DNA of 64,000 nt from Candidatus Sulfomarinibacteraceae bacterium (lineage in GTDB: Bacteria > Acidobacteriota > Thermoanaerobaculia > Thermoanaerobaculales > Sulfomarinibacteraceae): the NCBI GenBank assembly GCA_963741385.1, contig CAVUHO010000010.1, positions 1,639,720 through 1,703,719 of the forward strand, given 5' to 3'. Positions within the stretch are counted from its first letter, which is position 1, and every line of letters starts with the position of its first letter. The notes under the pieces were generated by a model. It was not told the origin of the DNA and did not search any database. It saw only the letters and a list, made by a program, of their open reading frames with translations. Made by a program: the position numbers and the translations under genes. Positions 5,605-59,026 of this stretch are shown here, piece by piece.

Positions 5605-7092
5605 ATGATGATTCTGCCGAGGATCCTCCTCGTTGACGAGAACCCGAGCGACCGCCGACTCGCGGCGCTGGTTTTGGCCGGTGAGTTCGGCAATCTGGAC
5701 CTGGAAGAGGTCGGTTCGGCGGTCGAATTCTCGGGTGCGCTGGCGGCGCGGCGCTTCGGCTTCGTCATCACCGAAGCCGGGTTTTCCTGGGGCGACGGTC
5801 TCGAGGTGGCCCGTCTGGTTCGGGAAGTCCAGCCGGACTGCCCGGTGGTTCTCTTTACGGCGGAAATTGGTGAGGAGCTGTGGAGCGAGTCACTTCGGCT
5901 CGGAATCGACGGCTACGTCGCCAAATCATCCGATGGGTTCGTTCGTCTGCCATCGGCGATTCGCGCGGTCTTCTTCCGTACCCGTCGACGGGCGATGTCG
6001 ACCGCGCGCGACGCCCCCTATCGCGGGCTGGTGGACGGACTGCCTGTGGGGGTCTTTTCGGCGACGCTCGACGGCGAGATCCTCGAGGCCAACCCGTCTT
6101 TCGCCTCGATGCTCGGCCTCTTCGACCCCGAAGAGGTGGCGTGGTCGAGCTTTCCCGGTCTGTTTGCCGTGCCGGCGGCGGCCGATACCTGGCGCAGCCA
6201 GATGGTGTCAGCGCGCTATATCGGCAATCTCGAAACGCAGCTGCGGCGTGCCGATGGCTCGCTTTTGTGGGCGCGGGTGTCGTCGTGGGTGTCCGAGAAC
6301 GCCCAGACCGGGGTTCGGCAGATCCAGGGCATTATCGAGGGATCCGACACCTACCATGCGGCTCAGCAGGAGCTTGCCGAAAGAGTCGAGTCTCTGACCC
6401 GATCGAACGATGAACTCGAGAAATTCGCCTACGTGGTGTCGCACGATCTCCAACAGCCCTTGAGCGTCGTCTCGAGCTACCTCGAGCTGTTGGCGGACAG
6501 CTGCCGCGACAAGCTGTCCGGTGACGAGGAGAACTACCTCGATCGCGCAGCGTGCAGCGCGGTGCGGGTTCAGGAGATGGTGGACGCAGTGCTCAACTAC
6601 TCCCGCGTCGACTCGCGGGGCGGCGAGTTCACGTCGGTTGATCTCGCGGAGGTGTTCGACGAAGTCAAGGGCGGGTTGTGGAAGGAGATCACCTGCGTCA
6701 GGGCCGAGATCACCACCGACGAGCTGCCGGTGGTCATGGCCGACCTTCCCCAGATGCAACAACTCCTGCAGAACCTCGTGTCCAATGCCCTCAAGTTCGT
6801 CGACAAGGCGCCGGCCAGGGTGCATGTGGGGGTCGAGGAGCGCTCCGATGAATGGCAGATCTCGGTCCGCGACGAGGGCATCGGGATCGGCCCGGAGGCT
6901 GCGGATCGGGTGTTTGTGATGTTCCAGCGTCTGCACACCGAAAAGGAGTACCCGGGAACCGGCATCGGCCTCGCGATCTGCAAACGGATCGTCGAGCGAC
7001 ACGGAGGCCGGATCTGGGTCGAGTCGGTGCCCAACCGCGGCACGACATTTTTTTTCACGATTCCGAAGAGATCACCCGGCAAAGGGATGTGA
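5605..7092 (+). CDS. Hybrid sensor: atypical receiver (Glu at phospho-acceptor position) - PAS - HisKA/HATPase histidine kinase
   Basis: REC-like N-terminus (LLVDENPS, GFVITEAGF, VVLFTAE, GYVAKS), then a PAS region. H-box FAYVVSHDLQQPL, N-box LLQNLVSNALKF, G-boxes DEGIGI and GTGIGLAICKRIVERHGG. Confidence 0.85.
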   Translation: MMILPRILLVDENPSDRRLAALVLAGEFGNLDLEEVGSAVEFSGALAARRFGFVITEAGFSWGDGLEVARLVREVQPDCPVVLFTAEIGEELWSESLRLGIDGYVAKSSDGFVRLPSAIRAVFFRTRRRAMSTARDAPYRGLVDGLPVGVFSATLDGEILEANPSFASMLGLFDPEEVAWSSFPGLFAVPAAADTWRSQMVSARYIGNLETQLRRADGSLLWARVSSWVSENAQTGVRQIQGIIEGSDTYHAAQQELAERVESLTRSNDELEKFAYVVSHDLQQPLSVVSSYLELLADSCRDKLSGDEENYLDRAACSAVRVQEMVDAVLNYSRVDSRGGEFTSVDLAEVFDEVKGGLWKEITCVRAEITTDELPVVMADLPQMQQLLQNLVSNALKFVDKAPARVHVGVEERSDEWQISVRDEGIGIGPEAADRVFVMFQRLHTEKEYPGTGIGLAICKRIVERHGGRIWVESVPNRGTTFFFTIPKRSPGKGM

Positions 7093-7129
7093 TTCCGTGA
7101 GCGACCGGCTATCATCCTGGGGGCTTTGA

Positions 7130-24763: not shown

Positions 24764-25537
24764 ATGACGACAACCGGCCTCAAGGCTCTTCTGCTCGATC
24801 TCGACGATACGTTGATCGACAATCCGGTGCGCACGTTCATCCCGGCGTACTTCGGGGCGCTCAAGGCGTTCGTGGCGGAGACCGTCGACCCCGACCTTTT
24901 TATTGCTGAGCTGCTGGCCGCCACCCGGGCCATGGATCGCGGCGATGGCACGGGGGCAACCAACGAAGAGGTCTTTGCCGCCGCCTTCTACCCGGCGCTC
25001 GACGTGCCGCGCGAGGTGCTTGAACCCCTGCTCGGGCGTTTCTACCGCGAGGCCTATCCCTCGTTGCAACCGATGATCGGGCCGCGACCGGCGGCGCCGA
25101 AGATCGTCGAGTGGGCTGAACGGCAGGGGCTGCAGGTGGTGATCGCCACCAACCCGCTGTTCCCGCGGACTGCCATCGAGCAGCGCATGGAGTGGGGCGG
25201 CGTCGGGGCCGACCGCTTCGACTACGACCTCGTGACAGCCTATGAGAACTGCCGCGCCACCAAGTCGCACGAGGCCTATTACCGGGACATCGTCGCCTTT
25301 CTCGGCAGACGTCCCGAAGAATGTCTGATGGTCGGCGACAACTGGGACTGGGACATTGCGTGCGCAGGAAGGGTTGGGATCAGGGGCTTCTGGATTGCTG
25401 TGGCCGACGCCCGTCCGGGGTCATCGGAGGTAGAGGTGGTGGGGCAGGGCTCGCTCGACGCATTTTTACAGGCGGCAGAAAACGGCGACCTCGAGGACGC
25501 GTTCGAAGGAACGCTGGCGGGGCGGGTCGCGCTGTGA
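24764..25537 (+). CDS. HAD-superfamily hydrolase
   Basis: Motif I LLLDLDDTL at the N-terminus and a late VGDNWDWDI (motif IV). The ATG at 24764 is preferred because the ORF-track start at 24695 lies inside the repeat. Confidence 0.7.
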   Translation: MTTTGLKALLLDLDDTLIDNPVRTFIPAYFGALKAFVAETVDPDLFIAELLAATRAMDRGDGTGATNEEVFAAAFYPALDVPREVLEPLLGRFYREAYPSLQPMIGPRPAAPKIVEWAERQGLQVVIATNPLFPRTAIEQRMEWGGVGADRFDYDLVTAYENCRATKSHEAYYRDIVAFLGRRPEECLMVGDNWDWDIACAGRVGIRGFWIAVADARPGSSEVEVVGQGSLDAFLQAAENGDLEDAFEGTLAGRVAL

Positions 25538-27699
25538 AGGCTGAAGATCTGCGCCGCCGCCTGGCCGACCACGTCGTGGTCATGGACGGTGCGATGGGGT
25601 CGGAGCTTCTGCAACGCCTGCCCGAAGGCGCGCGCATGGACCTGGCGGTTCACGAGCACCCGCAGGCGGTTCTCGATATCCACCTCGCCTACATCGAAGC
25701 CGGAGCGGAGCTCATCGAGACCTCCAGCTTCGGTTGTTCGCGACCCCGGCTGGAACGCGCCGGGGCGGGAGACCTCACCGAGAAGATCAATGCCGGATCC
25801 GTCAAACTGGCGCGTGAGGCCCGGGAGATCTCGGGTCGCGACATCTTGATCGGCGGCTCCATCGCGCCGCTTGCCGGCGTGTTGGATCTCGATGAGCCCG
25901 AGGGTCGGGCGATGATCCCTCTGGCTCATGCCGAGCAGGCATCGATTCTTGCCGGGCGCGGCGCTGACCTCTTGATCCTCGAGACCTTTTTCCGGATCGA
26001 CGAGCTGGCGATCGCGGTGGCAGCGGTGCGCAGCGTCACCGACCTGCCTCTGATCGGCATGATGACCTTCGCCCACGAACGTCCCCCCCACCCCTACAAG
26101 GAGCAGGCCGAGTACCTCGACGAGCTTGCCGAACTCGATCTCTTGGCGGTCGGTGTCAACTGCGCCCCGGGCCCCATGGGGACCCTCGAGATCCTGCGCC
26201 AGGTGACCCAGCTGCGGGTGCCGCTGGCGGCTGCGCCCAACGCCGGGACCCTGGTGCGCCGTGAAGGGCGGATCCTGATGCCGCCGGCCACCCCGGTGTA
26301 TCTGGCGCAGTTCGTCCGACAGGCGGTCGGTCTGGGAGCGGCGGTGGTCGGCGGGTGCTGCGGCACCGGGCCCGAGCACATCCGGGCGATCGCCAACGCG
26401 GTGCGCGATCTCACCCCCCAGCCCCGCACCACGACCGTGGTGGCGGTCGGGTCGAGCGTGCCGGCACCCGAGGCGGTGCGCCCGTCGTCGGCCCTCGCGG
26501 CCAAGCTCGAGAGGGGGCGGTTTGTCCGGCTGGTCCAGCTCGACCCGCCCAAGGGGACCAACGTCGATGCGCTCCTGGAGGCCGCCGCGGCAATTGCGGC
26601 CCACCCCGACGTCGACGGAGTCGACATCAACTCGAACCCGTTGGCGCGGCTGCGGATGGACCCGCTCTATCTCGGTCAGTTGATCCAGCAGAGGACTGGA
26701 CTCGAGGCGGTGCCCCACATCACGCCGCGCGACGCCAGCCTGATGGGTCTGCAGTCGCAGCTCCTCGGGGCGTGGCGCGGGGGCATCCGCAATGTGCTCG
26801 CCGTCACCGGCGACCCCTCACAGCTCGGCGACTACCCGGGGGTTCACGACGTCTACCACGTGGATATCTTCGAACTGGTGCGGTCCCTTTCGCGGCTCGC
26901 CGAAGGTTATGACTGCGCCGGCAACCGGATCGGAGATCCACCGGGCTTTCTCGTCGGAGTTGCCGTCAACCCGGCCGCCGACGACCCGCAGAAGGAGGCC
27001 GATCGCCTGCGCCGCAAGGTCGACAACGGCGCCCACTTCGCCATGAGCCAGGTCACCTTCGACTGGCAGGCGTGGGATCGTTTCACTGCGCTCTTCGGGG
27101 GCGAACTGCCGATCCCGACCCTGGCCTCCGTGTGGCCTCTGCGGTCGCTCAAAATGGCGCTCCGCCTCCACCACGAGGTGCCAGGCATTGTGGTGCCGGA
27201 GAATCTCCTGTCGGCCCTCGAGGCTGCCGGCGCGGACGCCGAGAGGGTCGGTTATGAGTGGGCCGTGCGGATGCTGCGCGAAGCGCCGGACCACGCCGCC
27301 GGGGTGTACCTCATCGCGCCGTTCAAACAACCGCAGGCGATCCTGCCGTTGATTGATGACGCAGGATCGAATTACGGAATTCGGAATTCGGAATTCGGAA
27401 TTCCCGCCCAACCCCCCACCGACAATGAGTACTCGAGTGCTCAGGGTGGGTGGGAGCGCGTGCGGCGGAGGTGCCTGGCTCCCGGCCCGTCCTACGGGCC
27501 GGCGTGCCTGGCTCCTCTCGGGAAGGGCGTGCGGAAACGAGCCGCGTGCGGCGGAGGTGCTTTTCGGAATCTCGGGCAATGCCCCTTCAGAGCCTCGGGA
27601 TGTCACCGTCGGAAGGACCTTCAGAAACGAGACTCCGACCGTCACGACCAATGTGAGGTGGCGTCTTCATCGCCTTATCGGTTACTCTTCGCCTCTTGA
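25534..27699 (+). CDS. Bifunctional homocysteine S-methyltransferase / methylenetetrahydrofolate reductase (YitJ-like) with a repeat-encoded C-terminal extension
   Basis: GTG at 25534 overlaps the HAD stop (GTGA). The HMT domain shows VVMDGAMGSELL and VGGCCGTGPEHI, and the MTHFR domain shows VPHITPRDASL and LAVTGDP. The family-like sequence ends near ...FKQPQAILPLIDDAG (~27360), but no in-frame stop occurs until 27699. Confidence 0.75.
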   Translation: MKAEDLRRRLADHVVVMDGAMGSELLQRLPEGARMDLAVHEHPQAVLDIHLAYIEAGAELIETSSFGCSRPRLERAGAGDLTEKINAGSVKLAREAREISGRDILIGGSIAPLAGVLDLDEPEGRAMIPLAHAEQASILAGRGADLLILETFFRIDELAIAVAAVRSVTDLPLIGMMTFAHERPPHPYKEQAEYLDELAELDLLAVGVNCAPGPMGTLEILRQVTQLRVPLAAAPNAGTLVRREGRILMPPATPVYLAQFVRQAVGLGAAVVGGCCGTGPEHIRAIANAVRDLTPQPRTTTVVAVGSSVPAPEAVRPSSALAAKLERGRFVRLVQLDPPKGTNVDALLEAAAAIAAHPDVDGVDINSNPLARLRMDPLYLGQLIQQRTGLEAVPHITPRDASLMGLQSQLLGAWRGGIRNVLAVTGDPSQLGDYPGVHDVYHVDIFELVRSLSRLAEGYDCAGNRIGDPPGFLVGVAVNPAADDPQKEADRLRRKVDNGAHFAMSQVTFDWQAWDRFTALFGGELPIPTLASVWPLRSLKMALRLHHEVPGIVVPENLLSALEAAGADAERVGYEWAVRMLREAPDHAAGVYLIAPFKQPQAILPLIDDAGSNYGIRNSEFGIPAQPPTDNEYSSAQGGWERVRRRCLAPGPSYGPACLAPLGKGVRKRAACGGGAFRNLGQCPFRASGCHRRKDLQKRDSDRHDQCEVASSSPYRLLFAS
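27368..27610. repeat. Mosaic repeat (7-bp array + palindromic core + 2x CGCGTGCGGCGGAGGTGC module)
   Basis: CGAATTA (CGGAATT)x4 at 27368-27402, then CCGCCCAACCCCCCACCGACAATGAGTACTCGAGTGCTCAGGGTGGGTGGGAGCGCGTGCGGCGGAGGTGCCTGGCTCC. GGCTCCTCTCGGGAAG and a second GCGTGCGGCGGAGGTGC follow. Confidence 0.85.
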
Positions 27700-27770
27700 T
27701 ATGGACGAATTGAAAGACCCAGCTTGGCGGAGGCCCCCTCATCGCGGCCGGCAGCGACCGCACGGAGGAG

Positions 27771-31279
<3,509 letters not shown>

Positions 31280-31283
<4 letters not shown>

Positions 31284-31321
31284 CGGGAGTCAGCAATTTC
31301 GGATTTCGGATTTCGGATTTC
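31280..31321 (+). terminator. Stop-overlapping hairpin plus 7-bp T-rich array after metH
   Basis: CTGAC-GGGA-GTCAG (31280-31293, includes the TGA stop), then CAATTTC GGATTTC GGATTTC GGATTTC (31294-31321). Confidence 0.45.
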
Positions 31322-31460
31322 CCGCCCGCACCCCCACCTGCACAATAGACTCGAGCACTCAGGGCGGGTGGACCGCGTGCGGCGGAGGTGCCTGGCTTCA
31401 GCCTGGCTCCTCTCGGGAAGCGCGCTTGGAAGGTCAAGCCGCACGGGATTGCCGTGAAAA
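31322..31460. repeat. Mosaic repeat core downstream of metH
   Basis: CCGCCCGCACCCCCACCTGCACAATAGACTCGAGCACTCAGGGCGGGTGGACCGCGTGCGGCGGAGGTGCCTGGCTTCAGCCTGGCTCCTCTCGGGAAGCGCGC uses the same modules as 21153- and 27403-. Confidence 0.8.
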
Positions 31461-31479
31461 CCACCCGGGATAAACACCC

Positions 31480-31508
31480 TTGACCGGAGAATCGGAAAAG
31501 CCCAAACT
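31480..31508 (+). promoter_or_regulatory. Weak candidate promoter (TTGACC-17 nt-CAAACT) just upstream of the REC-LpxC gene
   Basis: TTGACC at 31480-31485 and CAAACT at 31503-31508. It would give a very short leader before the ATG at 31518, and no SD sequence is visible. Confidence 0.25.
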
Positions 31509-31517
31509 GGCACAACC

Positions 31518-32813
31518 ATGAACGAACTCATCCTCATCGTCGATGACGAGACCGGCATTCTGACGACCCTGTCACAGATCCTGGTGGACGAGGGCTACCG
31601 CACGATCACCACGACCAGCGGCGAAGAGGCGCTCCACCTCTTTCGGGAGCAGCGGCCGGACGTGGTCTTTCTCGACATCTGGCTGCCCGATTGGGACGGC
31701 CTCGAGACCCTCCAGGCGCTGCGCGACGTGGACCCCTTTGCGATGGTCATCATGATGTCCGGGCACGGCACTTCGGAAACCGCGGTCAAGGCGATCAAGA
31801 TGGGGGCCCACGACTACCTGGAGAAACCCCTGTCCTACGACCGCACCGTCAAGGCGGTGGAGGAGGCCCTGGTGGCGAGACGAAACGCCGTCCGGGGCGC
31901 GGGCGATGGGGTGCTCGAGGCGAGCCGCGAACGCATCGAGCCGGTGGTGAAGTTCGACCCGCCGCCCCGCCTGTCCCTCTTGCGGAAGACCGACCGGCCG
32001 CAGCGCACGATTCGCGAGTCGAGCGTCATCTACGGGCTCGGTCTGCATTCGGGCGGACGCACCGGGATGGTCATCCAACCGCTGCCTCCCGATACCGGGA
32101 TCCACTTCCTGACGCTGCCGCGCGGCGTCACCATGCCGGCCCACGTGAACTCGGTGGCGGAGACCGACTACGCCACCAGCCTGACTCGAAACGGCGAGAG
32201 CATCCGCACCGTCGAGCACCTGTTGTCGGCGCTGCACGCGTGCGGTGTGAGCAACCTCCTGGTCAAGGTCCACGGCGAGATCCCGGTGCTCGACGGCTCG
32301 GCCCTGAGCTTTCTCGACAAGCTGCAGGAGATCGGCGTCGTCGATCAGGACGCCCTGGTCAAGGAGCTGGTCATCGACCGCCGTTACGAGGTGGGCGACG
32401 GCAAGAAGTCGCTGGTGATCGAACCGGCCGGCGTGTTCTCGGTGTCCTACCAGCTCAGCTATCCGCCGCCGGTGGGAGATCAGTACTACAACTTCGTCTT
32501 TACCGGGTGCGACGCCTACCGCGAAGAGGTGGCCCCGGCCAGGACCTTCGGGTTCATGCGCGATCTGACGATGATCAACGAGCTCGGGCTCGGCACCGGC
32601 GGCCGCCTCGACAACTTCATCCTGGTCGGCGAGGACAACGTCATCAACACCGATCTGCGCTTCCCGGACGAGTTCGTGCGCCACAAGATCCTCGACATCA
32701 TCGGCGACCTCTACCTGCTCGGCTACCCGGTGCGCGGCAAGGTGACGGCGAAGCTCACCGGCCACCGCGACAATATCGAGATCCAGCGGCGGATCCTGGC
32801 TGCGAACAGCTGA
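31518..32813 (+). CDS. lpxC: Response-regulator receiver domain fused to UDP-3-O-acyl-GlcNAc deacetylase (LpxC)
   Basis: aa 1-~120 form a canonical REC (IVDDE, VVFLDIWLPD, IMMSGHG, GAHDYLEKP). From aa ~165 there is an LpxC core: IYGLGLHSG, TVEHLLSAL, PVLDGSA, ARTFGFMRD, DEFVRHKILDIIGDL, TGHRDN. Confidence 0.9.
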   Translation: MNELILIVDDETGILTTLSQILVDEGYRTITTTSGEEALHLFREQRPDVVFLDIWLPDWDGLETLQALRDVDPFAMVIMMSGHGTSETAVKAIKMGAHDYLEKPLSYDRTVKAVEEALVARRNAVRGAGDGVLEASRERIEPVVKFDPPPRLSLLRKTDRPQRTIRESSVIYGLGLHSGGRTGMVIQPLPPDTGIHFLTLPRGVTMPAHVNSVAETDYATSLTRNGESIRTVEHLLSALHACGVSNLLVKVHGEIPVLDGSALSFLDKLQEIGVVDQDALVKELVIDRRYEVGDGKKSLVIEPAGVFSVSYQLSYPPPVGDQYYNFVFTGCDAYREEVAPARTFGFMRDLTMINELGLGTGGRLDNFILVGEDNVINTDLRFPDEFVRHKILDIIGDLYLLGYPVRGKVTAKLTGHRDNIEIQRRILAANS

Positions 32814-32857
32814 GGGGCCCGTTTCCGCACTCGCTTCCCGAGAGGATGCCAGGCACG

Positions 32858-32889
32858 CCGGCATGATGTTGAGGACAACATCATGCCGG
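32858..32889. other. Perfect 14-bp stem / 4-nt loop hairpin 45 nt after the lpxC stop
   Basis: CCGGCATGATGTTG-AGGA-CAACATCATGCCGG, flanked by GCCAGGCAC modules. There is no T-tract. Confidence 0.7.
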
Positions 32890-32910
32890 GAGCCAGGCAC
32901 CTCCATCGAG

Positions 32911-33278
32911 CGCGACACGTTTCAGCGCGCGCTTCCCGGGAGTTGCCACCTTCAACATTGTTGGCCCGCATCGACCTGCCGAGGTCAATGTTCGTGTTTC
33001 CAACAATGTTGAAGATGGCACGCTCCGCCGCACGCGACACGTTTCAGCGCGCGCTTCCCGGGAGTTGCCACCTTCAACATTGTTGGCCCGCATCGACCTG
33101 CCGAGGTCAATGTTCGTGTGTCCAACAATGTCGAAGATGGCACGCTCCGCCGCACGCGGCACGTTTCAGCGCGCGCTTCCCGGGAGTTGCCACCTTCAAC
33201 ATTGTTGGCCCGCATCGACCTGCCGAGGTCAATGTTCGTGCGTCCAACAATGTCGAAGATGGCACGCTCCGCCGCACG
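32911..33278. repeat. Tandem repeat, 122-bp unit x3, each unit a long hairpin
   Basis: Units start at about 32913, 33035 and 33157 and are near-identical. Each holds CCACCTTCAACATTGTTGG...CCAACAATGT(T/C)GAAGATGG arms, an inner GACCTGCCGAGGTC hairpin and a GCACGCTCCGCCGCACGCG module. Confidence 0.9.
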
Positions 33279-33483
33279 CGGTCCCACCCACCCTGAGCAC
33301 TCGGGGCTTTCAGAGTCGGTGGGGGGTTGGGTGGCAAATCCGGCACTGCCCGTCAGGAGCGGAATGTGGCCGACGGCCGGAAAGGAAGGGTGGGAGGGGG
33401 CCGGCCATCGGCCACCCGCTCATGGCGGGTAGACGCCGTGGCCGAAGGCCACGAGCAAATCCGAAATCCGAAATCCGAAATCG
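33279..33483. repeat. Inverted copy of the palindromic core plus 7-bp array
   Basis: GTCCCACCCACCCTGAGCACTCGGGGCTTTCAGAGTCGGTGGGGGGTTGGGTGG is the reverse orientation of the core. A CGTGGCC-GAA-GGCCACG hairpin follows, then CAAATCC GAAATCC GAAATCC GAAATCG (33456-33483). Confidence 0.8.
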
Positions 33484-33551
33484 GCTGTGTGGCTGGGTGG
33501 AAGGGGTAAAATGCCGCGGTCCGGCGCCGCGTGGCGCCGGGTGGTTGATGG

Positions 33552-36500
33552 ATGGAGGGGTCGATGAGAACTCGGTATTTTCCCGCTGTTGCGGTGGTGG
33601 TGGGCTGTGCGGCGTTGGCTGCGCTGTCGGTTTCGGCTGCGGACCTGACGCCGCTGTTGCGCTTTCCCGATATGTACGGCGACACGGTGGTCTTCGTTCA
33701 CGGCGAGGACATCTGGACGGCGCCCACCGCCGGCGGCCGCGCCATCCGCCTGACCGATGACGAGGGTGAGGAGTGGAGCCCGAAGTTCTCCCCCGACGGC
33801 TCGTTGATCGCCTTTTCCGCCGAGATGGACGGCAACCCTGACGTTTACGTGATGAACTCCGACGGCTCCGACGTGCGGCGTCTCACCTTCCACCCCGGGG
33901 ACGACGAAGTGGTTGGCTGGCACCCGACGTCGGGCAAGGTGATGTTCCGGTCTGCGCGGCACTCCTACTCGCGCTTCGACCGGCTGTTCCTGATCGCCCC
34001 CGACGGCTCCGGGCTCGAGGAGCTGCCGATGCACGAGGCCGGCCGCGGCTCGTTTTCGCCGGACGGAGGCAGCATCGCCTACAACCGCATCGCGCGCGAG
34101 GACCGCACCTGGAAGCGGTACTTCGGCGGCATGGCGCAGGACATCTGGCTCTATGACTTCGCGACCCACGACGACCGCAGGCTCACCGATTACCGCGGCA
34201 CCGACCGCCTGCCGATGTGGATCGGCGACGCCCTTTTCTTCGCTTCGGACCGCGACGGCGTGCTCAACATCTGGCGCTACGACCTCGCCGACGGTGCGCA
34301 GACCCAGATCACCCACCACAGCGACTACGACGTCCGCCGGCCCAGCGAGGGCGGAAACCTGATCGTCTACGAGGTTGCGGGCAACCTGTGGCTGCTCGAC
34401 ACGGCAGACGGCGAGACGCGGCCCATCCCGATCGAGATCCCGACTGCGCCGCGCGAGACCCGGCCCTACCGCAAGGCGGTGGCCGACTTCATCACCCACG
34501 TCGACGTGGCGCCCGAGGGCGGCCGCGCATTGGTCTCGGCCCGCGGTGAGGTCTTCACCGTGCCGTTCGAGACCGGGCCCACCCGCAACCTGACCCAAAC
34601 GTCGGGCGCCCGCGACCGCGGCGCCGTGTGGTCGCCGGACGGCACGAGAATCGCCTTCTTCTCGGATCGGGACGGCGAATACCAGCTCTACATCGCCGAC
34701 CCGCTGGGGGCCACCGACCCGCGGCGGCTCACCTCCCGCGATCGCGGCTGGCCGCACACCGCGCGGTGGTCGCCGGACGGCACGATGATCGCATTCACCG
34801 ACGAGACTCTCACCCTGTTCGTCATCGACACCGCGAGCGGCCGCCTGACGACGGTCGATCGGGCCGAGGTGGAGCCGATGGACATCGGTCTCGAGTCCAA
34901 ACCGATCTCGGACCACGCGTGGTCGCCGGACTCGCGCTGGCTGGCCTACTCGAAGATCGGACGCGACCACGTCGCCAACGTCTATCTGTACTCGATCGCC
35001 GACCGCGCCACCCACAACGTTTCGAATGGCCTTTTCAACGACTTCGGTCCCGTGTTCACGCGCGACGGCCGGCACCTTCTCTTCGTCTCGAACCGCCGCT
35101 TCGACCCCACCTTCTGCGACTTCGAGTGGGAGATGGTCTCCAAGAATGTGGCCGGCATCTACGCGCTGACGCTGCAAGCCGGTGGCGACCCTTTGCTGCC
35201 ACCGCTCTCGGACGAGGTGGCGGCAGCGGAGGATATCCACCCGAACGCCGGAAAGCCTGTTGCTCCACCCCGCGTGGTGATCGATTTCGAGGGCATTGCG
35301 GAGCGGGTCGAGGCGCTGCCGGTGCCGGCGTCCAACTACCGAGATCTGGCGGCCGGGGCCTACGCCGTCTATTTTCTCGACGGCACGGGGGGCGACTTCA
35401 ACCGCTTCGAGTACCGCGAGCTGCCGCCGCGGACGCTCTACGCCTTTGACTTCGAACGACGGACCGTCGAGAACGTTGTTGAGGAGGTGGATCAGTACGC
35501 GCTGGCCGTCGACGGCGAGCATCTGGTCTGGCGGCACGGCAACTCCGTGGGCATCGCCCACGCCGATTCGCGGGAACGGGAGCGCACCGACGCGCGCTCG
35601 GGTTCGGCGGCAGCCGCGTTGACCACCACCAGCACCACCCTCGATCTCGCGGACCTCACCATGCTGCTCGACCCGAGAGCGGAATGGCTGGAGGTCTACA
35701 CCGATGCCTGGCGCCTCGAGCGCGACTTCTACTACGAGCCCGGCATGAACGGCCTCGACTGGCCCGCCATGCGCGTCAAGTACCAGCCGCTGGTCGAGCG
35801 GGCCACCTGCGCCCAGGACATGCGCTTCATCATCGGCGAGCTCATCGGCGAGCTCGCCACCTCGCACACCTACATCCGTACTGGCGATCGCAGGCGGCGT
35901 GCCGACGCGGTCAACGTCGGCCTGTTGGGGGCCGACTGGTCGCTCGACCCGGACAGCGGCCGCTGGGTGATCGAAACGATCTACCGGACACCCGACTGGT
36001 CGAATGGTGTGGTTCCGCCGCTGGTGGGGCCCGGTCTCGATGTGCGCGAGGGCGACGAGCTGGCGGCGGTCAACGGGCAGCCCGTGTCCGGGGAGCGCGA
36101 AGTCTTCGCCGCCTTCCAGGGTCTCGCCGGTGAGCAGGTGCGGTTGACCCTGGTCCGCGACGGCCGCGATTTCGACGTGGTGGTGACGCCGCTGGCCAGC
36201 GAGCGCACCCTGCGCTACCTGGACTGGGTGGAGCGCAACCGGCGCCGCGTGGACCAGGCGTCGGGCGGCCGCATCGGCTACCTCCACCTTCCCGACACCT
36301 ACCTGGGGTCGGCGGTCGAGTTTCCCAAGTACTTCTACGCCCAGACCTCCAAGCAGGGGATCCTGGTCGACGGCCGCTTCAACGGCGGCGGCCTCGACCC
36401 CGACATCTTCCTGCAGCGGCTGGCCAAGAAACCCCTGACCTACTGGACGCGGCGCTACTCGGAGGACCAGGTCGAGCCGGTTTACGCCTCCGACGCGCAC

Positions 36501-42309: not shown

Positions 42310-42941
42310 TTTCTGGGTTCCACGACGCGCAGGATCACCTGGTCCCGCACGTTGGGGCCGATGATCTCGCGGATATAGGTGCCCTCGTGCTCGATCACCA
42401 GGACCCCCTCATCCAGAACTTCGTCCACCCGCGCATAGCCGCCCGCGATCAGCTCCACCCGGTCGCCGCGCCGGGGATCCCAGCCTCGCAGCTGTTCAGA
42501 AGACGGGCTCTCCGTCCGAACCAGATTTTCGAGATCGTTGATCGCGCCCGTGATGAGCGCCAGCTCGAGCGAGACCGTGGCCAGGGGCGAAAAGCGGATC
42601 ACGCGGGGCGACTTCGGGCCGATGTGAAGAGTCAGGACCACCTCGCTTTTCGGCGTCGAGATCGACGACGTCACCGGTTGCTCCCCCAACTCCTCGGTGG
42701 CCTTCTGCAGGATTGAGACGTAGATCAGGTACTGGTCCTCAGGCAGGGTCTTGCGCTGCAAATACCCCTGGTTGTCTTTTTCGGTGATGGACACGACGAT
42801 AACCCGGTTGCTGAAGAGAGTGACACGTGTGGCGAGGTCGCCTTCGGTGAAGACGCGTTCCACAACCGGGATCGGGGCCTGGGCGGCGGCGGTGGCTGCA
42901 ATCAATGTCAGGAGGCAGCCGGCAATCACCTGGATTTTCAC
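42306..42941 (-). CDS. Secreted hypothetical protein
   Basis: GTG at 42941 overlaps the upstream stop (GTGA). Signal peptide VKIQVIAGCLLTLIAATAAAQA. The 3' end overlaps the rsmD start (ATGA). Confidence 0.5.
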   Translation of the reverse strand: MKIQVIAGCLLTLIAATAAAQAPIPVVERVFTEGDLATRVTLFSNRVIVVSITEKDNQGYLQRKTLPEDQYLIYVSILQKATEELGEQPVTSSISTPKSEVVLTLHIGPKSPRVIRFSPLATVSLELALITGAINDLENLVRTESPSSEQLRGWDPRRGDRVELIAGGYARVDEVLDEGVLVIEHEGTYIREIIGPNVRDQVILRVVEPRK

Positions 42942-45577
42942 GAGCCCCCCCTCTCCTCGAGACTCATGGCGGTTTCGACGGCCCATGAGAGAGCCTCGTC
43001 TGCGGACACCACACCGTCGACCAGCGCGTCCCGCACCATCATCAGGGTACGGCCGATGCGCGGTCCGGGTGGAACCTCGCATTCGAGCAGCTGGCGGCCG
43101 GTGACCGGCATCTCCAACCGCGCCGCGGCCTCCGCCGCGTCAGCGAGCGTCCGTCTCGCCCCGAGGGGAACCTGCGCCATCGCCAGCAGCAGGGGCTCGG
43201 GCGGACACGTCTCGACGACCCGCACTCGGCGAGATCGCGGCAGCGAAGGATCTGTCGCGTGGACAATGGCCTCAACCTGGCCGGGCAGAGCGAGGACGCG
43301 ATCACGAGCCGAGCCACCGAGCTGCAACCGTTGCGCCAATTGTGCGACGACGTCTGTTCCCGCCTGCACGGCGAGACCACCGAGAAACAGGATCCACAGG
43401 TCAGGGGGCGGTCCGAGACCCTCGAGCTCGTACCACGCCAGCTGGCCCTCCACCTCCATGAGGTGGCTGCGGACCCTCTCGTCCCAGCGCAGGTCCCGGC
43501 AGATGGCGGGCAGCAGACCGAGCCGCGCCACGAGGGCCAGGGCCTCGGTGGGGTGAGCCTCGGTCAGGAGCAACTCGAGTTCGCGCCGAAGGCGTTGGCC
43601 CGAGAGCCGTTCGAACACCCCCTCGGCAAGGGCGGTGGTGATCAGGAGGCGGGTATCGGGGGCGATCGCGAAGTCGAGGCGGCGGGCATACCGCACCGCA
43701 CGGAGGGCGCGGGTCGGGTCGTCGATAAAGGACAGGGAGTGGAGGACCCGGATCTCGCGGCGCTGGATGTCCTTGCGGCCGCCAAAGAAATCGACCAGCT
43801 CTCCGTAGCGGTCGCCCTGGAGGGTCACCGCCAGCGAGTTGATGGTGAAGTCGCGGCGGTAGAGATCCTGACGAATCAGGGATGTGGCCACCTCGGGCAA
43901 CGCGGCGGGCGTGCGGTAGAACTCCGTGCGGGCGGAGGCGACATCGACCTTGAGGCCGTGGGGCAGGGTCACCACCGCGGTCAGAAAAGGCGCATGCGGG
44001 TGGTGTCTGCCGTCCAGCTCTTTGGCGAGATCAGTCGCAAAGGCGATGCCGTCCCCCTCGACGACCAGGTCCACGTCCTCGTTCGGCCGTTCCAGGAGCA
44101 TATCCCGCACCATGCCGCCGACCAGGTACACCGGCACCCGTTGCTGATCGGCGACGCGGCGCGTCCCGTCGAGCACCCGCTGCACCCACGGTGGTGCAAA
44201 CTCGCGGAGCAGGCGGTTGATGGATTGGCTCACCGGGCGGGTACCGGCCATCCGGTTGTCGAGCGCCGAACCCGCGGCGTGCTGGTGTTCGAAGAGCCGG
44301 CGGAACAGCTCCATCCGGGTGATGATGCCCGCCGGTTTCCCGCCATCCTCAACGACGACGAAGCGGTAGGAGCGTTCGAGGAAGAGATCGCGGAGCGCGT
44401 CGAGCGGGGTTGCGGCTGCCACTGTGGGTAGATCGGGCTGCATCACCGAGCTCACCGGCCGCTCGTTCATGGCGTGGCTGAGAGCGCGGTCGAGGGTCTG
44501 CCGGGTGACCAGGCCGACCAGGTTGCCGGAGGTGGTCTCGCGCACCGGCAGGGCGTTGACCCGCAGCTGGTTGATGCGGTCCTTGGCGTCGGTGACCGTC
44601 ACCGTGTCGTCGACTGAAAAGATCTTGCGCGCGGCAATGTCGATGGCGGTCGCCGGTGGCGGCATCTCGACGGCGAGCGCTTCCAAGAGCACCTCGCGCA
44701 GCTCCACCGGCATCAGATCGGACACCCTGGCCGAGGCCGCCGTCGGGTGGCCGCCGCCGCCGAACTGCTGGGCGACGCGGCCGACGTGGAGACCGGGCAG
44801 ACGGGACCTCAGGATGAGGTTGATGTTGGGCGGGCGGACCAGGAGCACCGCGCCGACCACGATCTCGAAGATCTCCACCCACCGGTGGACGACGAATGCG
44901 GCCTCCTCGTGGTAGCGGTCGACCTCGATCATCGACAGCGAAACCGGCACCCCGGCGATGTCGATGATTTCGGTGGCCTCGACCATGCGGTTGAGCAGTT
45001 CGAGTTGCTCCGGCTGGAGCACCTTGAGGACCCAGCGCCGGACCCACGCCAGCGACGCCCCCTGCTCGAGCAGCCAGGCGGAAATCCGTAGGTCGTCGGG
45101 GGTCGTCTCCCGATAGGACAGACCGCCGGTGTCCTCGTAGATGCCCATCAGCATCAGACTCGCTTCGTTGACGGTCGGTTCGAGACCGCGTTCGCGGTAG
45201 AGATCGGCGATGATCGTGCAGGTGGCGCCGACCGGTCTGACGATCGACTCGGCGGCGTCGAGCCCGTCGACTTCTTCCTCCAGGTGGTGGTCGATGAGAG
45301 TGACCGGGCAGCCGTTGGCGGCGATCAGGTCGAAGACCTCGCCGAGCCGGGACGGACTGCGGGTGTCCACCACCACGGCATGTTCGATCGGTTCGGTTCG
45401 AGCGCGCCGCAGCTTGGCCTCTGGGTACGCGAACTCCGCCTCGGTGAGAAAGCGGCGCACCGCAACTTCCTGCGACCCGGGGAACACCACCTCGTGGTCC
45501 GGGAACAAACGCACCGCGCACACCGCCGCCGCAAACGCGTCGAAATCCGCCGACAGGTGCGTCGTAATGATCTTCAC
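42938..45577 (-). CDS. DHH/DHHA1 phosphoesterase - CBS pair - CCA-adding enzyme/poly(A) polymerase-family nucleotidyltransferase fusion
   Basis: N-terminal HLSADFDAF and DHH (IDHH), GGGHPTAA (DHHA1), and a CBS region. The nucleotidyltransferase head is VYLVGGMVRDMLL..NEDVDLVVEGD, followed by RRDFTINSLA. GTG start at 45577. Confidence 0.8.
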   Translation of the reverse strand: MKIITTHLSADFDAFAAAVCAVRLFPDHEVVFPGSQEVAVRRFLTEAEFAYPEAKLRRARTEPIEHAVVVDTRSPSRLGEVFDLIAANGCPVTLIDHHLEEEVDGLDAAESIVRPVGATCTIIADLYRERGLEPTVNEASLMLMGIYEDTGGLSYRETTPDDLRISAWLLEQGASLAWVRRWVLKVLQPEQLELLNRMVEATEIIDIAGVPVSLSMIEVDRYHEEAAFVVHRWVEIFEIVVGAVLLVRPPNINLILRSRLPGLHVGRVAQQFGGGGHPTAASARVSDLMPVELREVLLEALAVEMPPPATAIDIAARKIFSVDDTVTVTDAKDRINQLRVNALPVRETTSGNLVGLVTRQTLDRALSHAMNERPVSSVMQPDLPTVAAATPLDALRDLFLERSYRFVVVEDGGKPAGIITRMELFRRLFEHQHAAGSALDNRMAGTRPVSQSINRLLREFAPPWVQRVLDGTRRVADQQRVPVYLVGGMVRDMLLERPNEDVDLVVEGDGIAFATDLAKELDGRHHPHAPFLTAVVTLPHGLKVDVASARTEFYRTPAALPEVATSLIRQDLYRRDFTINSLAVTLQGDRYGELVDFFGGRKDIQRREIRVLHSLSFIDDPTRALRAVRYARRLDFAIAPDTRLLITTALAEGVFERLSGQRLRRELELLLTEAHPTEALALVARLGLLPAICRDLRWDERVRSHLMEVEGQLAWYELEGLGPPPDLWILFLGGLAVQAGTDVVAQLAQRLQLGGSARDRVLALPGQVEAIVHATDPSLPRSRRVRVVETCPPEPLLLAMAQVPLGARRTLADAAEAAARLEMPVTGRQLLECEVPPGPRIGRTLMMVRDALVDGVVSADEALSWAVETAMSLEERGGS

Positions 45578-48613: not shown

Positions 48614-50395
48614 TCAATCGGGAGTTGAAAAATCAGCCGCCACCCTCGGGCCGGCCGCGAATCCATCGCGACGCGGATCGCCGACCCCGGTGAAGGCGCC
48701 CATATGCGGAAAATAGGCGGCGACGTTTACGCCGCCGAAAAATGCCGAATCCGCCACAGGGTCAGGTGGGTAACGGAGAACATACATGGTGTCGAACCCC
48801 ATTCGACGCAACGACTTGACATCGGCCTTGACGATGGGCCGGGCGACTTCGACGCACACCCGGCCCGGGTCGTGAGCGCTATTCCAGATCGCTCTGGGTG
48901 CCACCACCGCGTCGCGGACATTCATGTGCCGATCAACCAGGTTGGTGATGACCTCGCAGACGGACGGGGGGATCCGGTCGCTGCCGGCGCTGCCGAGCGC
49001 AATCACCGACTCCCGGGTGCGGACGATGGTGGGTGCCATGTTGGTCGGGAAGGTGCCGCCGGGTTGGAGGTAGAGGGGGTTCTGAGGGTTTTCGAAGTCG
49101 AGAAACTCGAGACAGCTGTTGTAGGGGAAACCGAGACCGGCGGTGGCGATCTTGGAACCGAATTGCCGGCACAGGGTCTGAGTGAGCGAGACCACGTTGC
49201 CGTCGCGGTCGATCACCGACACCTGAGTGGTGTGGTCACCGAGGGCCGACGCAGTGCCGCGAGGGCCCAGTTCGCTTTCGGGAATGGCTCGTCCCGGCGT
49301 GATGAGGGCGGCGCGTTCCCGGGCGTGGGCGGGATCGAGGTTGGACGAGCCGAACGGCGGATTCCCGCCCGCAGAGACTCCGCCCTGATCCGCCTGTGCG
49401 AGCCGGGTCGCCTCGATCATGATGTGCAGGCGCTCCGCGGAGTGTTCAGCGATGGTGGTGCTGGGATAGGTCCCGAGAATGTTGAGAGTCTCTACAACCT
49501 CGCCGCCGCCCCCCGGTGGCGGGAAGACCAGGATCTCGGCATCGCGATACCGGGACCGGAGCGGCCTGGCCTCGCGAACGCGGTACCGGGCGAGATCGAT
49601 GCTCCGGAGATACCCGCCGTTGGCCTGCATATCGGCGTTGATTTCGGCGGCGATGGCCCCGCGATAAAAGGTCTCGGCGCCGTCGCTCGCGATCCGCAGC
49701 AGGGTCGTGTGGAGGTCGGGGTTGCAGATGGTGTCGCCCGGCCGGCCCAGGTTCTGTCCGTCCTCGAGGACGATAAACCGCATGGACTCGGATGCCAGGA
49801 TCTCCTTCATGTAACCGCTGGCCCACGCGATGCTGTTGGGGCTGAGCCGGTAGCCGCGTGCGGCGTACTCGATGGCAGGTTCCAGGACCTGGCTGAGCTC
49901 CATCGTGCCGTAGTTCTCGAGGGAGTGGACGAGGGTGGCGAGCGTTGTCGGCACCGAGACCACCGTGTAGCCGAAACGGCCCTCGCTCGCCTTGATGGCC
50001 ATCAGCTCTTTGTGGTCAACCACGTAGGGCGCCGGCGTCGAACCGTCGACCGCGACGTCTCGTCCATCGGCGGTTGATATCAACACGTAGGTCAGACCGC
50101 CCAGACCAGAGCCGCCCGGATCGGAAACGCCGAGGGTCAAGGCCGCCGCCACTGCTGCGTCGACGGCGTTGCCCCCGTGCTCGAGCGCCCACACCCCGGC
50201 CTGCGTCGCCTCCATCGAGCCGGTGGACACCATGCCGAAATCGGAGCTCGCCTCGACCGCGTACAAAGGCCGGGCGCCGCCGTGGGCTGGTCGCGCCCTG
50301 TCGGCCACCGAACACCCCGCCAGGGAAATCAGGATGGCCGCTGCGGCGATGGATCCTCGAAGAAGCGGTTCGCGGCTTCGGGAGAATTGGGTCAT
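48614..50395 (-). CDS. ggt: Gamma-glutamyltransferase paralog 1 (lipoprotein signal)
   Basis: Lipobox ISLAGC, GGNAVDAAVAAAL, autoprocessing/nucleophile context LGDH-TTQVSVIDRDGNVVSLTQTL, and a C-terminal FFGGVNV. ATG at 50395. Confidence 0.85.
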   Translation of the reverse strand: MTQFSRSREPLLRGSIAAAAILISLAGCSVADRARPAHGGARPLYAVEASSDFGMVSTGSMEATQAGVWALEHGGNAVDAAVAAALTLGVSDPGGSGLGGLTYVLISTADGRDVAVDGSTPAPYVVDHKELMAIKASEGRFGYTVVSVPTTLATLVHSLENYGTMELSQVLEPAIEYAARGYRLSPNSIAWASGYMKEILASESMRFIVLEDGQNLGRPGDTICNPDLHTTLLRIASDGAETFYRGAIAAEINADMQANGGYLRSIDLARYRVREARPLRSRYRDAEILVFPPPGGGGEVVETLNILGTYPSTTIAEHSAERLHIMIEATRLAQADQGGVSAGGNPPFGSSNLDPAHARERAALITPGRAIPESELGPRGTASALGDHTTQVSVIDRDGNVVSLTQTLCRQFGSKIATAGLGFPYNSCLEFLDFENPQNPLYLQPGGTFPTNMAPTIVRTRESVIALGSAGSDRIPPSVCEVITNLVDRHMNVRDAVVAPRAIWNSAHDPGRVCVEVARPIVKADVKSLRRMGFDTMYVLRYPPDPVADSAFFGGVNVAAYFPHMGAFTGVGDPRRDGFAAGPRVAADFSTPD

Positions 50396-50432
50396 GACAC
50401 CGTGAAGTGTAACCCGTCGCTGCGGCGGCACC

Positions 50433-52295
50433 TCAGCGAACCGGAGTTCCAACCGAGACCGCGGCGGGGCCCCGTGCCGAACCCCATCGCCTGCTGTCGC
50501 CGATGCCGACGAAGGTCATGGCATCGGCATCCCAGCCGACGGCGTTGACGCCGCCAAAGAGGACGATCCGCCGGTTCGTTGGTGGGTAGGGCATTCGCTC
50601 GATGTTCTCGTAACCCATGGTCTCCAGGGCATCGACATGGGCCGATGTGATCGCGCCGGCGATTTCGACTGAAGTCTGTGTTCTCGAGATGCCGGCGGCG
50701 AGAACCCGCGGCGCTTCGACGGCCTCGACGAGCCCCATGCCCCGATCCACGAGATTGCTGATGACGCCGGTGATGATCGCCGGAATGCGGCTGCTGCTCG
50801 GCGCCCCGAGCGCGGCCAGGAGATCGCCGTCTTCGGAGAGGACGAGAGTCGGCGCCATGTCGCTCGGGCACTTGACCCGTGGCTGCAGATAGCCCGGGCA
50901 CTGGGGTTTGTCGAAGTTGAAGCCCTCGAGCAGGCTGTTGTAGGGAAAGCCGAGACCAGGGGTCACGACCTCGGCGCCATAGGAGCGGCCGAGCGTCTGG
51001 GTGAGCGTCACGACGTTGCCCCACGCATCCGCCACCGAAAGCTGGGTGGTGCTGTCGCCCGTCGGCGCGCACTCGGGATCAACGGGCCCCCTGAGCTCGG
51101 CGTCGGGAATCGGCAGTCCTTCGGAGATCGACAGGGCACGGCGCCGGGCGTGTTCCTTGGAGAGGTCATCGGGTGACGAGAACGCAAGGCCGTCCAGCGT
51201 TGCTCCAGAGGCAAGACGATCTGCGAACGCGATGCGGAGGGCCTCGATGAGCAGTTGTTCACGCCACACGGAGTCGTCGGCCAATAGGCCGGCTGGAATG
51301 GCCTCGAGGATGTTGAGGCTTTCGACGATGACTGGGCCTCCACCGGGCGGCGGGAAGGTGATGATGTGGCGGTCGCGATAGGTGGAGTGGAGGGGCTGGG
51401 TTTCGCGAATTCTCAGCATGGCGAGGTCGGTCTTGCGGATAAAACCGCCGTTCGCCTGCATGTCGGCGTCGATCTGGTCGGCAATGCTCCCCCGGTAGAA
51501 CGACTCGACTCCCTCGCGTTGAATCCGCCGCAGGGTTCGTGCCAGGTCCGGCCGGCAGCGGACATCGCCGGGCAGCCCGATGGCGGCATTCTCGTCGGCC
51601 GGTCTGCCGATGAGGGTGTTGTCGCCAAGGGCGATCAGGCGAAGAGAACCGGAGCGCAGAATCCGTTCGTAGTAGACATTGGTCCACACGATCTGGGTGG
51701 GGTTGAGTCGGAAACCTGACTCGGCCACCTCCACCGAGGGCTGGATCAGGTCGGCCATCGGTATGGTCCCGTACCTGGCCCGCGCGAACTCGAGCACCGC
51801 GAGGGTGGTCGGGACCGCCGCCAGCTCATGCCCTTCCATCTGGTCGGCTTGCTTGAGCTCGTGGAGCCTGGAGGGGTCGACGGCCCCCGGTGTCGGGGCG
51901 GTGCCGTCGATCGCGACGGTGCGGCCGCCGGCGACGCGGACGATCATGTAGGTCATACCGCCGAGCCCCGAGGCGTCCGGGTCGGCCACTCCGAGCGCGA
52001 TCGCCGCCGCCACCGCGGCGTCGACGGCGTTGCCGCCGCGCTCGAGGATCTGAACACCGATCTCGGTCGCCTCTGGAGATCCGCTCGCCACCATCCCGAA
52101 GTCCGAGTGCGCAACCGAAGGGTGGAGTGGGGCCGGGAGCGGTTTACCGGTCCGGGCCTCGACCTCAGCCGGGAGGGGTTCAATGCAGGGACCGGAGGTC
52201 GCGGCGGCAATCACCACAGCATAGATGGCGGTCAGCCGAATCGCCCTGTGGGTAATGCCGCGAACATCACAGCTCCAGGGTGCGTGTTCAGTCAT
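50433..52295 (-). CDS. ggt: Gamma-glutamyltransferase paralog 2
   Basis: GGNAVDAAVAAAIALGVADPDASGLGG, TGDS-TTQLSVADAWGNVVTLTQTL and LFGGVNAV. The start overlaps the paralog 3 stop by 8 nt. Confidence 0.85.
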   Translation of the reverse strand: MTEHAPWSCDVRGITHRAIRLTAIYAVVIAAATSGPCIEPLPAEVEARTGKPLPAPLHPSVAHSDFGMVASGSPEATEIGVQILERGGNAVDAAVAAAIALGVADPDASGLGGMTYMIVRVAGGRTVAIDGTAPTPGAVDPSRLHELKQADQMEGHELAAVPTTLAVLEFARARYGTIPMADLIQPSVEVAESGFRLNPTQIVWTNVYYERILRSGSLRLIALGDNTLIGRPADENAAIGLPGDVRCRPDLARTLRRIQREGVESFYRGSIADQIDADMQANGGFIRKTDLAMLRIRETQPLHSTYRDRHIITFPPPGGGPVIVESLNILEAIPAGLLADDSVWREQLLIEALRIAFADRLASGATLDGLAFSSPDDLSKEHARRRALSISEGLPIPDAELRGPVDPECAPTGDSTTQLSVADAWGNVVTLTQTLGRSYGAEVVTPGLGFPYNSLLEGFNFDKPQCPGYLQPRVKCPSDMAPTLVLSEDGDLLAALGAPSSSRIPAIITGVISNLVDRGMGLVEAVEAPRVLAAGISRTQTSVEIAGAITSAHVDALETMGYENIERMPYPPTNRRIVLFGGVNAVGWDADAMTFVGIGDSRRWGSARGPAAVSVGTPVR

Positions 52296-55816: not shown

Positions 55817-55914
55817 TGAGAGTACCGCCGTAGGTAGTGTTGTCAGGTGATCGAAAGCCACCCGAGGGCGTTTCCGACGTCCTGTCGGAACAGTGTACAC
55901 CCGGTAGTTTGCGG

Positions 55915-59016: not shown

Positions 59017-59026
59017 GACGGCTCCT

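Follow-up and report, generated by a model that had tools for sequence, protein, structure and literature searches.

Can two-component signalling act directly on LpxC, the rate-setting enzyme of lipid A synthesis and an important target for antibiotics? The question is raised by a gene on a 64,000-nucleotide stretch of DNA (here called the window) from a Candidatus Sulfomarinibacteraceae bacterium (GenBank assembly GCA_963741385.1, contig CAVUHO010000010.1, positions 1,639,720 to 1,703,719), in which a response-regulator receiver (REC) domain and LpxC are encoded as one protein. The known controls of LpxC are proteolysis by way of FtsH/LapB/YejM, activation by MurA in Pseudomonas aeruginosa and transcription, and none of them works via a fused signalling domain (PMC12444477). 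We show here that the window protein is best described as an NtrX-derived response regulator with LpxC as its putative output domain. The parts of the gene are listed below; counts refer to a set of 143 complete proteins of the same short form, aligned down to 30% identity.

31518..32813, plus strand: REC-LpxC gene, 431 codons and a stop (open reading frame (ORF) list, sequence, Pfam and NCBIfam matches)
31518..31898, plus strand: receiver (REC) domain, residues 1-127, including the long alpha-5 helix (107-127) (Pfam, AlphaFold2 (AF2) model, NtrX and NtrC4 matches)
31674..31676, plus strand: codon (gac) of the predicted phospho-acceptor Asp53 (read from the sequence; D in 142 of 143)
31899..31979, plus strand: predicted flexible tether, residues 128-154, about 27 residues (low predicted local distance difference test (pLDDT) values, least conserved part)
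31980..32810, plus strand: LpxC catalytic domain, residues 155-431, without a C-terminal tail (Pfam, TIGR00325, AF2 superposition, E. coli alignment)
32214..32219, plus strand: codons of E233-H234, the counterparts of E. coli E78 (general base) and H79 (zinc ligand) (alignment; both in 143 of 143)
32682..32708, plus strand: HKILDIIGD codons with H389, K390, D393 and D397, equivalent to E. coli H238, K239, D242 and D246 (alignment; 142-143 of 143)
32763..32765, plus strand: codon of H416, equivalent to E. coli H265 (alignment; 142 of 143)

The first-pass annotation had described a receiver fused to LpxC within a single ORF, and this is what we find. The frame at 31518..32813 on the plus strand opens with ATG and, by both the ORF list and the sequence itself, runs for 431 residues without an internal stop. 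Residues 5-114 match the Pfam model Response_reg (E 6.5e-30, 104 bits; cut-off 30.2) and residues 162-427 match LpxC (PF03331), with 1-267 of the 268 model positions covered (E 2.6e-80, 270 bits; cut-off 27); the NCBIfam lpxC equivalog TIGR00325 is passed with 241 bits (cut-off 187). In a search of the PDB the C-terminal part retrieves LpxC of P. aeruginosa, Aquifex aeolicus and E. coli (E about 1e-52 to 1e-46) and the N-terminal part retrieves the receivers of NtrC4, NtrX and NtrC1 as best matches, with no PDB chain spanning REC and LpxC together (best query-normalised template-modelling (TM) score 0.61). The Pfam scan detects neither the central AAA+ domain (Sigma54_activat) nor the C-terminal Fis-type HTH_8 DNA-binding domain in the window protein. 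Given the lack of both, the protein cannot be a transcription factor and falls outside the definition of an NtrC/NtrX-family regulator. It does show every testable hallmark of an LpxC and of a receiver domain.

The LpxC half is complete. Its motifs are TVEH (231-234), HKILDIIGD (389-397) and TGH (414-416). In a pairwise alignment to an E. coli LpxC reference whose key positions came out as expected, E. coli H19, E78, H79, T191, F192 and D197 correspond to identical residues H177, E233, H234, T343, F344 and D349, and H238, K239, D242, D246 and H265 to identical H389, K390, D393, D397 and H416. The only checked residue without a match is the non-catalytic C63, replaced by A219. P. aeruginosa LpxC, taken from the PDB and aligned independently, gives the same motifs. 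The complete core claimed by the first-pass annotation is thereby borne out: the zinc ligands (E. coli H79, H238, D242) and the catalytic residues (E78, H265, T191, K239, D246) are all present and are kept in 141-143 of the 143 homologues, with E233, H234 and D393 invariant and H389, K390, D397 and H416 each found in 142. The AF2 model of this half has the two-domain beta-alpha-alpha-beta fold of LpxC, superposing on A. aeolicus LpxC (4oze) with a target-normalised TM score of 0.95 and a root-mean-square deviation of 1.4 A over 271 columns. According to the alignment, the protein stops about 10 residues past the catalytic core, and the last ~25 residues of E. coli LpxC have no counterpart in it. 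From its intact residues the LpxC half is predicted to be catalytically competent as a UDP-3-O-acyl-GlcNAc deacetylase.

The receiver half is similarly well preserved. The motifs IVDDE (7-11), VVFLDIWLPD (49-58, with D53), MMSGHG (79-84, with S81) and GAHDYLEKP (96-104, with Y100 and K103), from which a canonical NtrC-like receiver had been proposed, are all present and make up a complete phosphorylation pocket of D9, D10, D53, S81 and K103 together with the switch aromatic Y100. D10, S81 and K103 occur in every one of the 143 homologues and D53 in all except one, and position 100 is Y or F in 141. The AF2 secondary structure consists of five beta-alpha units at high pLDDT. The assignment can be refined from NtrC-like to NtrX-like, since NtrX is the best receiver-only NCBIfam match (108 bits) and the longer relatives described below lie behind NtrY kinases. 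The receiver is of the NtrX type and likely phosphorylatable.

The two domains are joined by a tether whose predicted flexibility is consistent with its low pLDDT. In the AF2 model, which was built on a 46-sequence alignment (mean pLDDT 86, predicted TM score (pTM) 0.67), the receiver (1-127) and LpxC (155-431) are each confident and residues 128-143 fall below a pLDDT of 50. Mean conservation of the tether among the homologues is 0.56, compared with 0.78-0.79 in the two domains. The structure prediction that had been put forward as a way to view the REC/LpxC interface informs us on the domains and gives no information on the interface between them.

How widely is this arrangement found? In a search of about 5.8 billion proteins, the best 120 hits listed (99-72% identity, 385-465 residues, most about 430) carry both Pfam domains without exception, and the source databases name each of them plain LpxC. 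More than 180 metagenome proteins with the same architecture of about 430 residues were retrieved from JGI, ENA, NCBI and Logan. Scanning one genome per GTDB species gave 29 loci with a full-length match, and at all 29 the receiver is present beside the LpxC domain. Metagenome-assembled genomes (MAGs) account for 28 of these loci (97-62% identity, full length), with the labels Ca. Sulfomarinibacteraceae, Thermoanaerobaculia/-ales, Holophagae, Acidobacteriota, 'uncultured bacterium' and, in one case, Deltaproteobacteria; the remaining locus, at 46% identity, is labelled Bdellovibrionales. The window gene is 97% identical to that of a Ca. Sulfomarinibacteraceae MAG (class Thermoanaerobaculia, phylum Acidobacteriota). 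One MAG (MFD09779.bin.2.237) carries a REC-LpxC gene on each of two different contigs of ~190 kb (L002 and L006; 93% and 92% to the window gene) with similar synteny, which reflects either the binning together of two related strains or a genuine duplication.

Because the pocket and the catalytic residues are near-invariant among the 143 homologues, both halves appear to be selected for function, and both active sites are, judged from this alignment, under purifying selection. The architecture turns out to be common in sequence databases, across several phylum labels and hidden under plain 'LpxC' annotation. The first-pass annotation knew of no characterised REC-LpxC enzyme, and our literature search likewise turned up no account of a receiver, or of NtrX, fused to LpxC; as far as we found, the architecture is functionally undescribed.

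The wider family points to the origin of the fusion. Searching 1.84 billion cluster representatives exhaustively with HMMER, with Pfam scans to follow, recovered about 20 divergent REC-LpxC clusters of 412-461 residues and about 17 clusters of 650-736 residues, in which REC, Sigma54_activat, AAA_lid_14 and sometimes HTH_8 precede LpxC. By their domain content, the 650-736-residue proteins are an entire NtrC/NtrX-type regulator fused to LpxC. Three further clusters of 483-505 residues have a longer spacer, and in the one scanned (P0138) the match to HTH_8 is weak (E 3e-4); HTH_8 was found in some relatives, namely P0124, P0138 and P0129. In the long forms Walker A of the AAA+ domain is often kept, the DE of Walker B now reads D plus R, S, G or D, and GAFTGA is absent. 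The helix-turn-helix has been deleted in several of them, and the receiver and LpxC are always retained. With the middle domains decaying and both ends kept, the receiver plus LpxC would be the functional unit that is selected, and this pattern in the sequences argues that the two together are what is under selection.

A neighbour-joining tree of 111 LpxC domains gathers the fused forms into a single clade, distinct from 58 stand-alone representatives, in which short and long architectures are intermixed. G183, L189 and K250 are signature residues of the fused clade; at the position of K250 most stand-alone enzymes carry E or D. Four apparent stand-alone LpxCs (P0153, P0157, P0179 and P0190) are nested in the fused clade. 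Two were checked and both are artefacts, P0157 being a contig-edge fragment and P0179 a frameshifted NtrY-REC-LpxC locus. Frameshift-like breaks occur in the MetH, tricorn protease, REC-LpxC and NtrY genes of L001, L005, L025, L026 and L044, and such breaks yield spurious 'stand-alone LpxC' gene calls, P0179 among them. Against the window receiver, the receivers of the fused forms score 73-127 bits, most of them 101-127, compared with 88 bits or less for other receiver proteins, and 89 bits or less when the best PDB receivers are counted in. From this distance tree, which is not a rigorous phylogeny, we infer that the fusion arose once, long ago, and that the middle domains were then lost repeatedly. 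By the same comparison, the 431-residue window protein is the apparent reduced end of an NtrX::LpxC fusion series. Source labels in the fused family include Thermoanaerobaculia, Nitrospinota, Entotheonellia, Spirochaetota and 'Deltaproteobacteria'.

Gene order provides a second view of this origin. In four independent lineages of the longer form (a closed 3.9-Mb genome, Nitrospinota, assembly GCA_964395915.1 and 'Deltaproteobacteria' MAGs), a DUF4390 gene is followed by an NtrY-type kinase gene (NtrY_N, HAMP, PAS, HisKA, HATPase_c) and then by the fusion gene; this order is seen at loci L032, L034/L035, L036 and L038/L039. In one long-form operon the protein is annotated in IMG as NtrX. Downstream of the long-form gene purN, lolA and rseP are often found. 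Around the long-form loci (L032, L034, L036; in L032 at 3916-4314) lie envelope genes, among them a LapA-domain protein, lolA, rseP, ftsH, mlaC and fab genes, which suggests an envelope-homeostasis neighbourhood.

The short forms are mostly orphans. The first-pass annotation had noted the lack of an adjacent kinase, and indeed none stands beside REC-LpxC in the window or in the Thermoanaerobaculia orthologues; nor is there an ntrY or DUF4390 gene near the fusion in either. Short forms on unlabelled metagenome contigs and in Spirochaetota, including the complete genome AP019861.1, also have no adjacent kinase. The exception is L044, a short form that directly follows an NtrY-type kinase gene. 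In the Sulfomarinibacteraceae the local order is PFK, TauE, HAD, an S-methyltransferase/MTHFR fusion, MetH, REC-LpxC, (tricorn protease) and BipA. Neither a second lpxC nor any other lipid A gene was found in the window or in the fetched loci.

With moderate confidence, we consider it probable that the window protein is a competent LpxC with a working, phosphorylatable NtrX-type receiver, reduced from an NtrX::LpxC fusion, and that phosphorylation gates LpxC output post-translationally. In the ancestor the whole NtrX of a DUF4390-NtrY-NtrX system would have been joined to LpxC; later the AAA+ and DNA-binding parts would have been lost and, in this lineage, the gene would have been separated from its kinase. 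Asp53 would be phosphorylated by an NtrY-family kinase encoded elsewhere, or by a small donor of the acetyl phosphate type. The ensuing change at the alpha4-beta5-alpha5 face of the receiver may alter either its docking on LpxC or its dimerisation and so gate LpxC output after translation, for which we favour CheB-like docking or masking by the receiver on its tether, or else a dimer that depends on phosphorylation. That the phosphorylated state would lower lipid A synthesis is a guess, by analogy with NtrYX, which lowers lpxC expression in alphaproteobacteria. From the sequences we consider control of LpxC by phosphorylation likely; that Asp53 is phosphorylated, which kinase does so, and whether, in which direction and by what structural means LpxC responds are points that we infer. 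More tentatively, since we would not quite call it probable, LpxC may be switched directly by aspartyl phosphorylation from an NtrY-family kinase, with the fusions serving as a 'Rosetta stone' by which the ancestral, cross-phylum job of NtrYX is read as lipopolysaccharide (LPS)/envelope homeostasis. The long form would then combine a DNA-binding regulator with the enzyme, and the short form would be left with control of the enzyme only.

Several points weigh against phosphorylation gating LpxC output. The sole kinase within the 64-kb window is the REC-PAS kinase at 5605, which is paired with its own GGDEF-EAL regulator, and around the Thermoanaerobaculia orthologues no kinase was seen within 10 kb, apart from unrelated kinase-type matches ~8-10 kb off in L013 and L018. 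The spacer ranges from ~25 to ~300 residues across the family, which is awkward for a single rigid allosteric mechanism, and the AF2 confidence values (pTM 0.67, disordered tether) give no confident fixed receiver-LpxC interface. To our knowledge, moreover, LpxC is monomeric in all solved structures, and a dimerisation switch would have no precedent for this enzyme.

The kinase at 5605 is itself an unlikely partner of REC-LpxC, being cytoplasmic, adjoined by its own regulator and not of the NtrY type. At 5605-9256 on the plus strand, a cytoplasmic REC-PAS-HisKA-HATPase kinase is followed after 38 bp by a REC-PAS-GGDEF-EAL protein, and the two probably form a self-contained c-di-GMP signalling pair unrelated to REC-LpxC.

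The main rival to phosphorylation gating of the enzyme, although we regard it as unlikely, is that the receiver sets the amount of LpxC and not its activity, serving as a handle for degradation or for an adaptor (Lon, Clp or FtsH) that is gated by phosphorylation and replaces the C-terminal degron of E. coli. LpxC is classically controlled by proteolysis (PMC12444477), the C-terminal tail of the E. coli enzyme is missing from the window protein, and some relatives adjoin a ClpB-like gene (L040), lie near ftsH and rseP (L032) or adjoin a gene with a Lon substrate-binding domain (L045). However, protease-type neighbours are not conserved across the family, and the sequence bears no protease-specific sign. 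In addition, we know of no receiver that acts as a cis degron on an enzyme.

Two lesser rivals concern the standing of one half of the protein. The fused gene might be an accessory paralogue beside a stand-alone housekeeping lpxC, providing conditional capacity or acting on a variant substrate. The two fused copies in one MAG (L002, L006) would fit such a role, but the TIGR00325 equivalog cut-off is passed, the catalytic residues are all intact and no second LpxC hit was seen in the window or in any fetched locus. Furthermore, the fused clade spans many phylum labels, seemingly by vertical descent, among housekeeping genes including lolA, rseP, purN and fab genes, and the two that were checked of its four nested apparent stand-alone LpxCs, P0157 and P0179, proved to be artefacts. 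We consider this role improbable. A still smaller chance is left for the receiver being a vestige of the ancestral NtrX, kept as a folding or solubility partner or as a constitutive dimerisation module with phosphorylation irrelevant, as might be supposed from the missing adjacent kinase in this lineage and from the decay or loss of the other NtrX domains. Pseudo-receivers normally lose the residues of the phosphorylation pocket, whereas D9/D10, D53, S81, K103 and Y/F100 are invariant or nearly so in 143 sequences down to 30% identity.

That the join arose as an artefact of assembly or annotation, from a chimeric contig or from a stop or frameshift overlooked between two genes, can be dismissed. 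Several related nanopore-style MAG assemblies (L001, L005, L025, L026, L044) are rich in frameshifts, but these break the gene apart and do not make it, the ORF contains no stop or frameshift between the REC and LpxC parts, and the same architecture of ~430 residues is seen again at 29 genome loci and in more than 180 proteins.

The gene is flanked by repeats, which the first-pass annotation had considered as a possible cause of the fusion. Both lie outside the coding sequence.

31284..31517, no strand: upstream intergenic region with an ATTTCGG x3.7 heptamer array (31296-31321); context, outside the fusion
32911..33280, no strand: 122-bp unit repeated three times in tandem (98% matches), lying between REC-LpxC and the tricorn protease gene; outside the fusion

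ATTTCGG arrays occur at at least five intergenic sites of the window (21120, 24520, 31296, and 33461 and 37078 on the minus strand), where none is expected by chance, and they look like a dispersed intergenic element of this genome resembling repetitive extragenic palindromes. The 122-bp array is absent from the orthologous locus L033 (87% identical), where the fusion gene and the tricorn protease gene are just 78 bp apart; by this comparison the array is a lineage-specific, recent insertion. The idea that the repeats mediated the fusion does not hold. The fusion is kept across a whole bacterial class and several phylum labels, and long predates the repeats; the repeats therefore did not create it, and with the heptamers dispersed between genes and the 122-bp array missing from an orthologous locus a repeat-mediated origin is ruled out. 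The 122-bp unit contains an apparent internal inverted repeat (CAACATTGTTGG ... CCAACAATGT). A promoter and terminator scan of 31200-33600 returned nothing, and no sigma-70 consensus promoter was seen there.

Other genes around the fusion deserve mention. Directly upstream, at 25321-31283 on the plus strand, a homocysteine S-methyltransferase/MTHFR fusion (a 792-residue ORF) precedes a full B12-dependent MetH (1170 residues), and this pair is kept upstream of REC-LpxC throughout the Sulfomarinibacteraceae loci. Elsewhere in the family, at L045 (9610-11442) and L046 (9262-10938), the two fetched loci of one deep branch, the gene immediately after an orphan REC-LpxC is recN-like (SMC_N/AAA_23), a pairing common to two distant genomes, the first with a Spirochaetota label and the second unlabelled with flagellar and TP0873-type neighbours. 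The minus strand of the window carries three consecutive gamma-glutamyltranspeptidase paralogues in tandem (48614-56533; each E about 1e-97 to 1e-101 to PF01019), and two consecutive AcrB-type RND transporter genes (about 1090 residues each) followed by a gene for an HlyD-type membrane-fusion protein (55915-63780). Also on the minus strand, at 42938-45577, is an unusual multi-domain nucleotidyltransferase of 878 residues with DHH/DHHA1, CBS pairs and a poly(A) polymerase/CCA-adding head domain.

Among known systems, NtrX/PlrR is the nearest in kind. The window receiver is closest to the receivers of NtrX and NtrC4, and the AAA+ domain of the long-form relatives resembles that of alphaproteobacterial NtrX in having no GAFTGA. 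DUF4390 proteins are the third component of some NtrYX systems, the PlrP(DUF4390)-PlrS-PlrR subset (PMC13001219), and the longer relatives hold the place of ntrX in DUF4390-ntrY-ntrX operons, just as in that subset. A connection of NtrYX with the cell envelope and with lpxC expression is already on record: deletion of ntrYX in Rhodobacter sphaeroides raised lpxC mRNA 8.8-fold and increased LPS (PMC7240162; PMC12444477). Unlike NtrX, however, the window protein lacks both the AAA+ domain and the helix-turn-helix, its output is an enzyme, and no NtrY or DUF4390 gene lies nearby.

Compared with stand-alone LpxC, the fold, the zinc and catalytic residues and the equivalog score are alike, and A. 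aeolicus LpxC shares the lack of the C-terminal tail that E. coli uses for degradation by FtsH. The window protein differs in its N-terminal 127-residue receiver and tether, and its LpxC domain falls in a separate clade. LpxC evidently tolerates fusion partners, the one well-known natural fusion being the bifunctional LpxC-FabZ. The window protein matches the LpxC half of the LpxC-FabZ model (NF009667/PRK13188) and is not a member, at 189 bits against a cut-off of 465; in that fusion the partner, FabZ, is a C-terminal metabolic enzyme from the same pathway neighbourhood. The best working analogy for masking of the active site, whether phosphorylation relieves or imposes it, is CheB, in which a receiver on a flexible linker masks the methylesterase until it is phosphorylated. 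CheB likewise has an N-terminal receiver, a flexible linker and a C-terminal hydrolase, although both its catalytic domain and its receiver subfamily are unrelated to those of the window protein. A regulator dedicated to LpxC is also known as a separate protein. For DVU2934, an NtrC-family response regulator of Desulfovibrio vulgaris, lpxC is the only mapped target; orthologues are reported in Acidobacterium and Geobacter, and in Syntrophobacter fumaroxidans lpxC adjoins the regulator operon (PMC3333781). There, in contrast, control is transcriptional and the genes are separate.

The fusion suggests, on the strength of its sequence, direct signal control of outer-membrane synthesis. In a 2025 JBC review of LpxC regulation, NtrYX figures only as an indirect transcriptional influence, and the words 'fusion', 'fused' and 'receiver' never occur (PMC12444477). 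If phosphorylation does gate LpxC output in these proteins, it would constitute a fourth, signal-transduction route onto LpxC and the first direct two-component link to lipid A synthesis at its committed step. The NtrYX-LpxC link has so far consisted of indirect transcript changes in two alphaproteobacteria; the NtrX::LpxC fusions in ntrYX operons over several phyla are evidence from evolution, independent of those data, for NtrYX and LpxC working together. The fusion family may thus offer a handle on what NtrYX systems are for.

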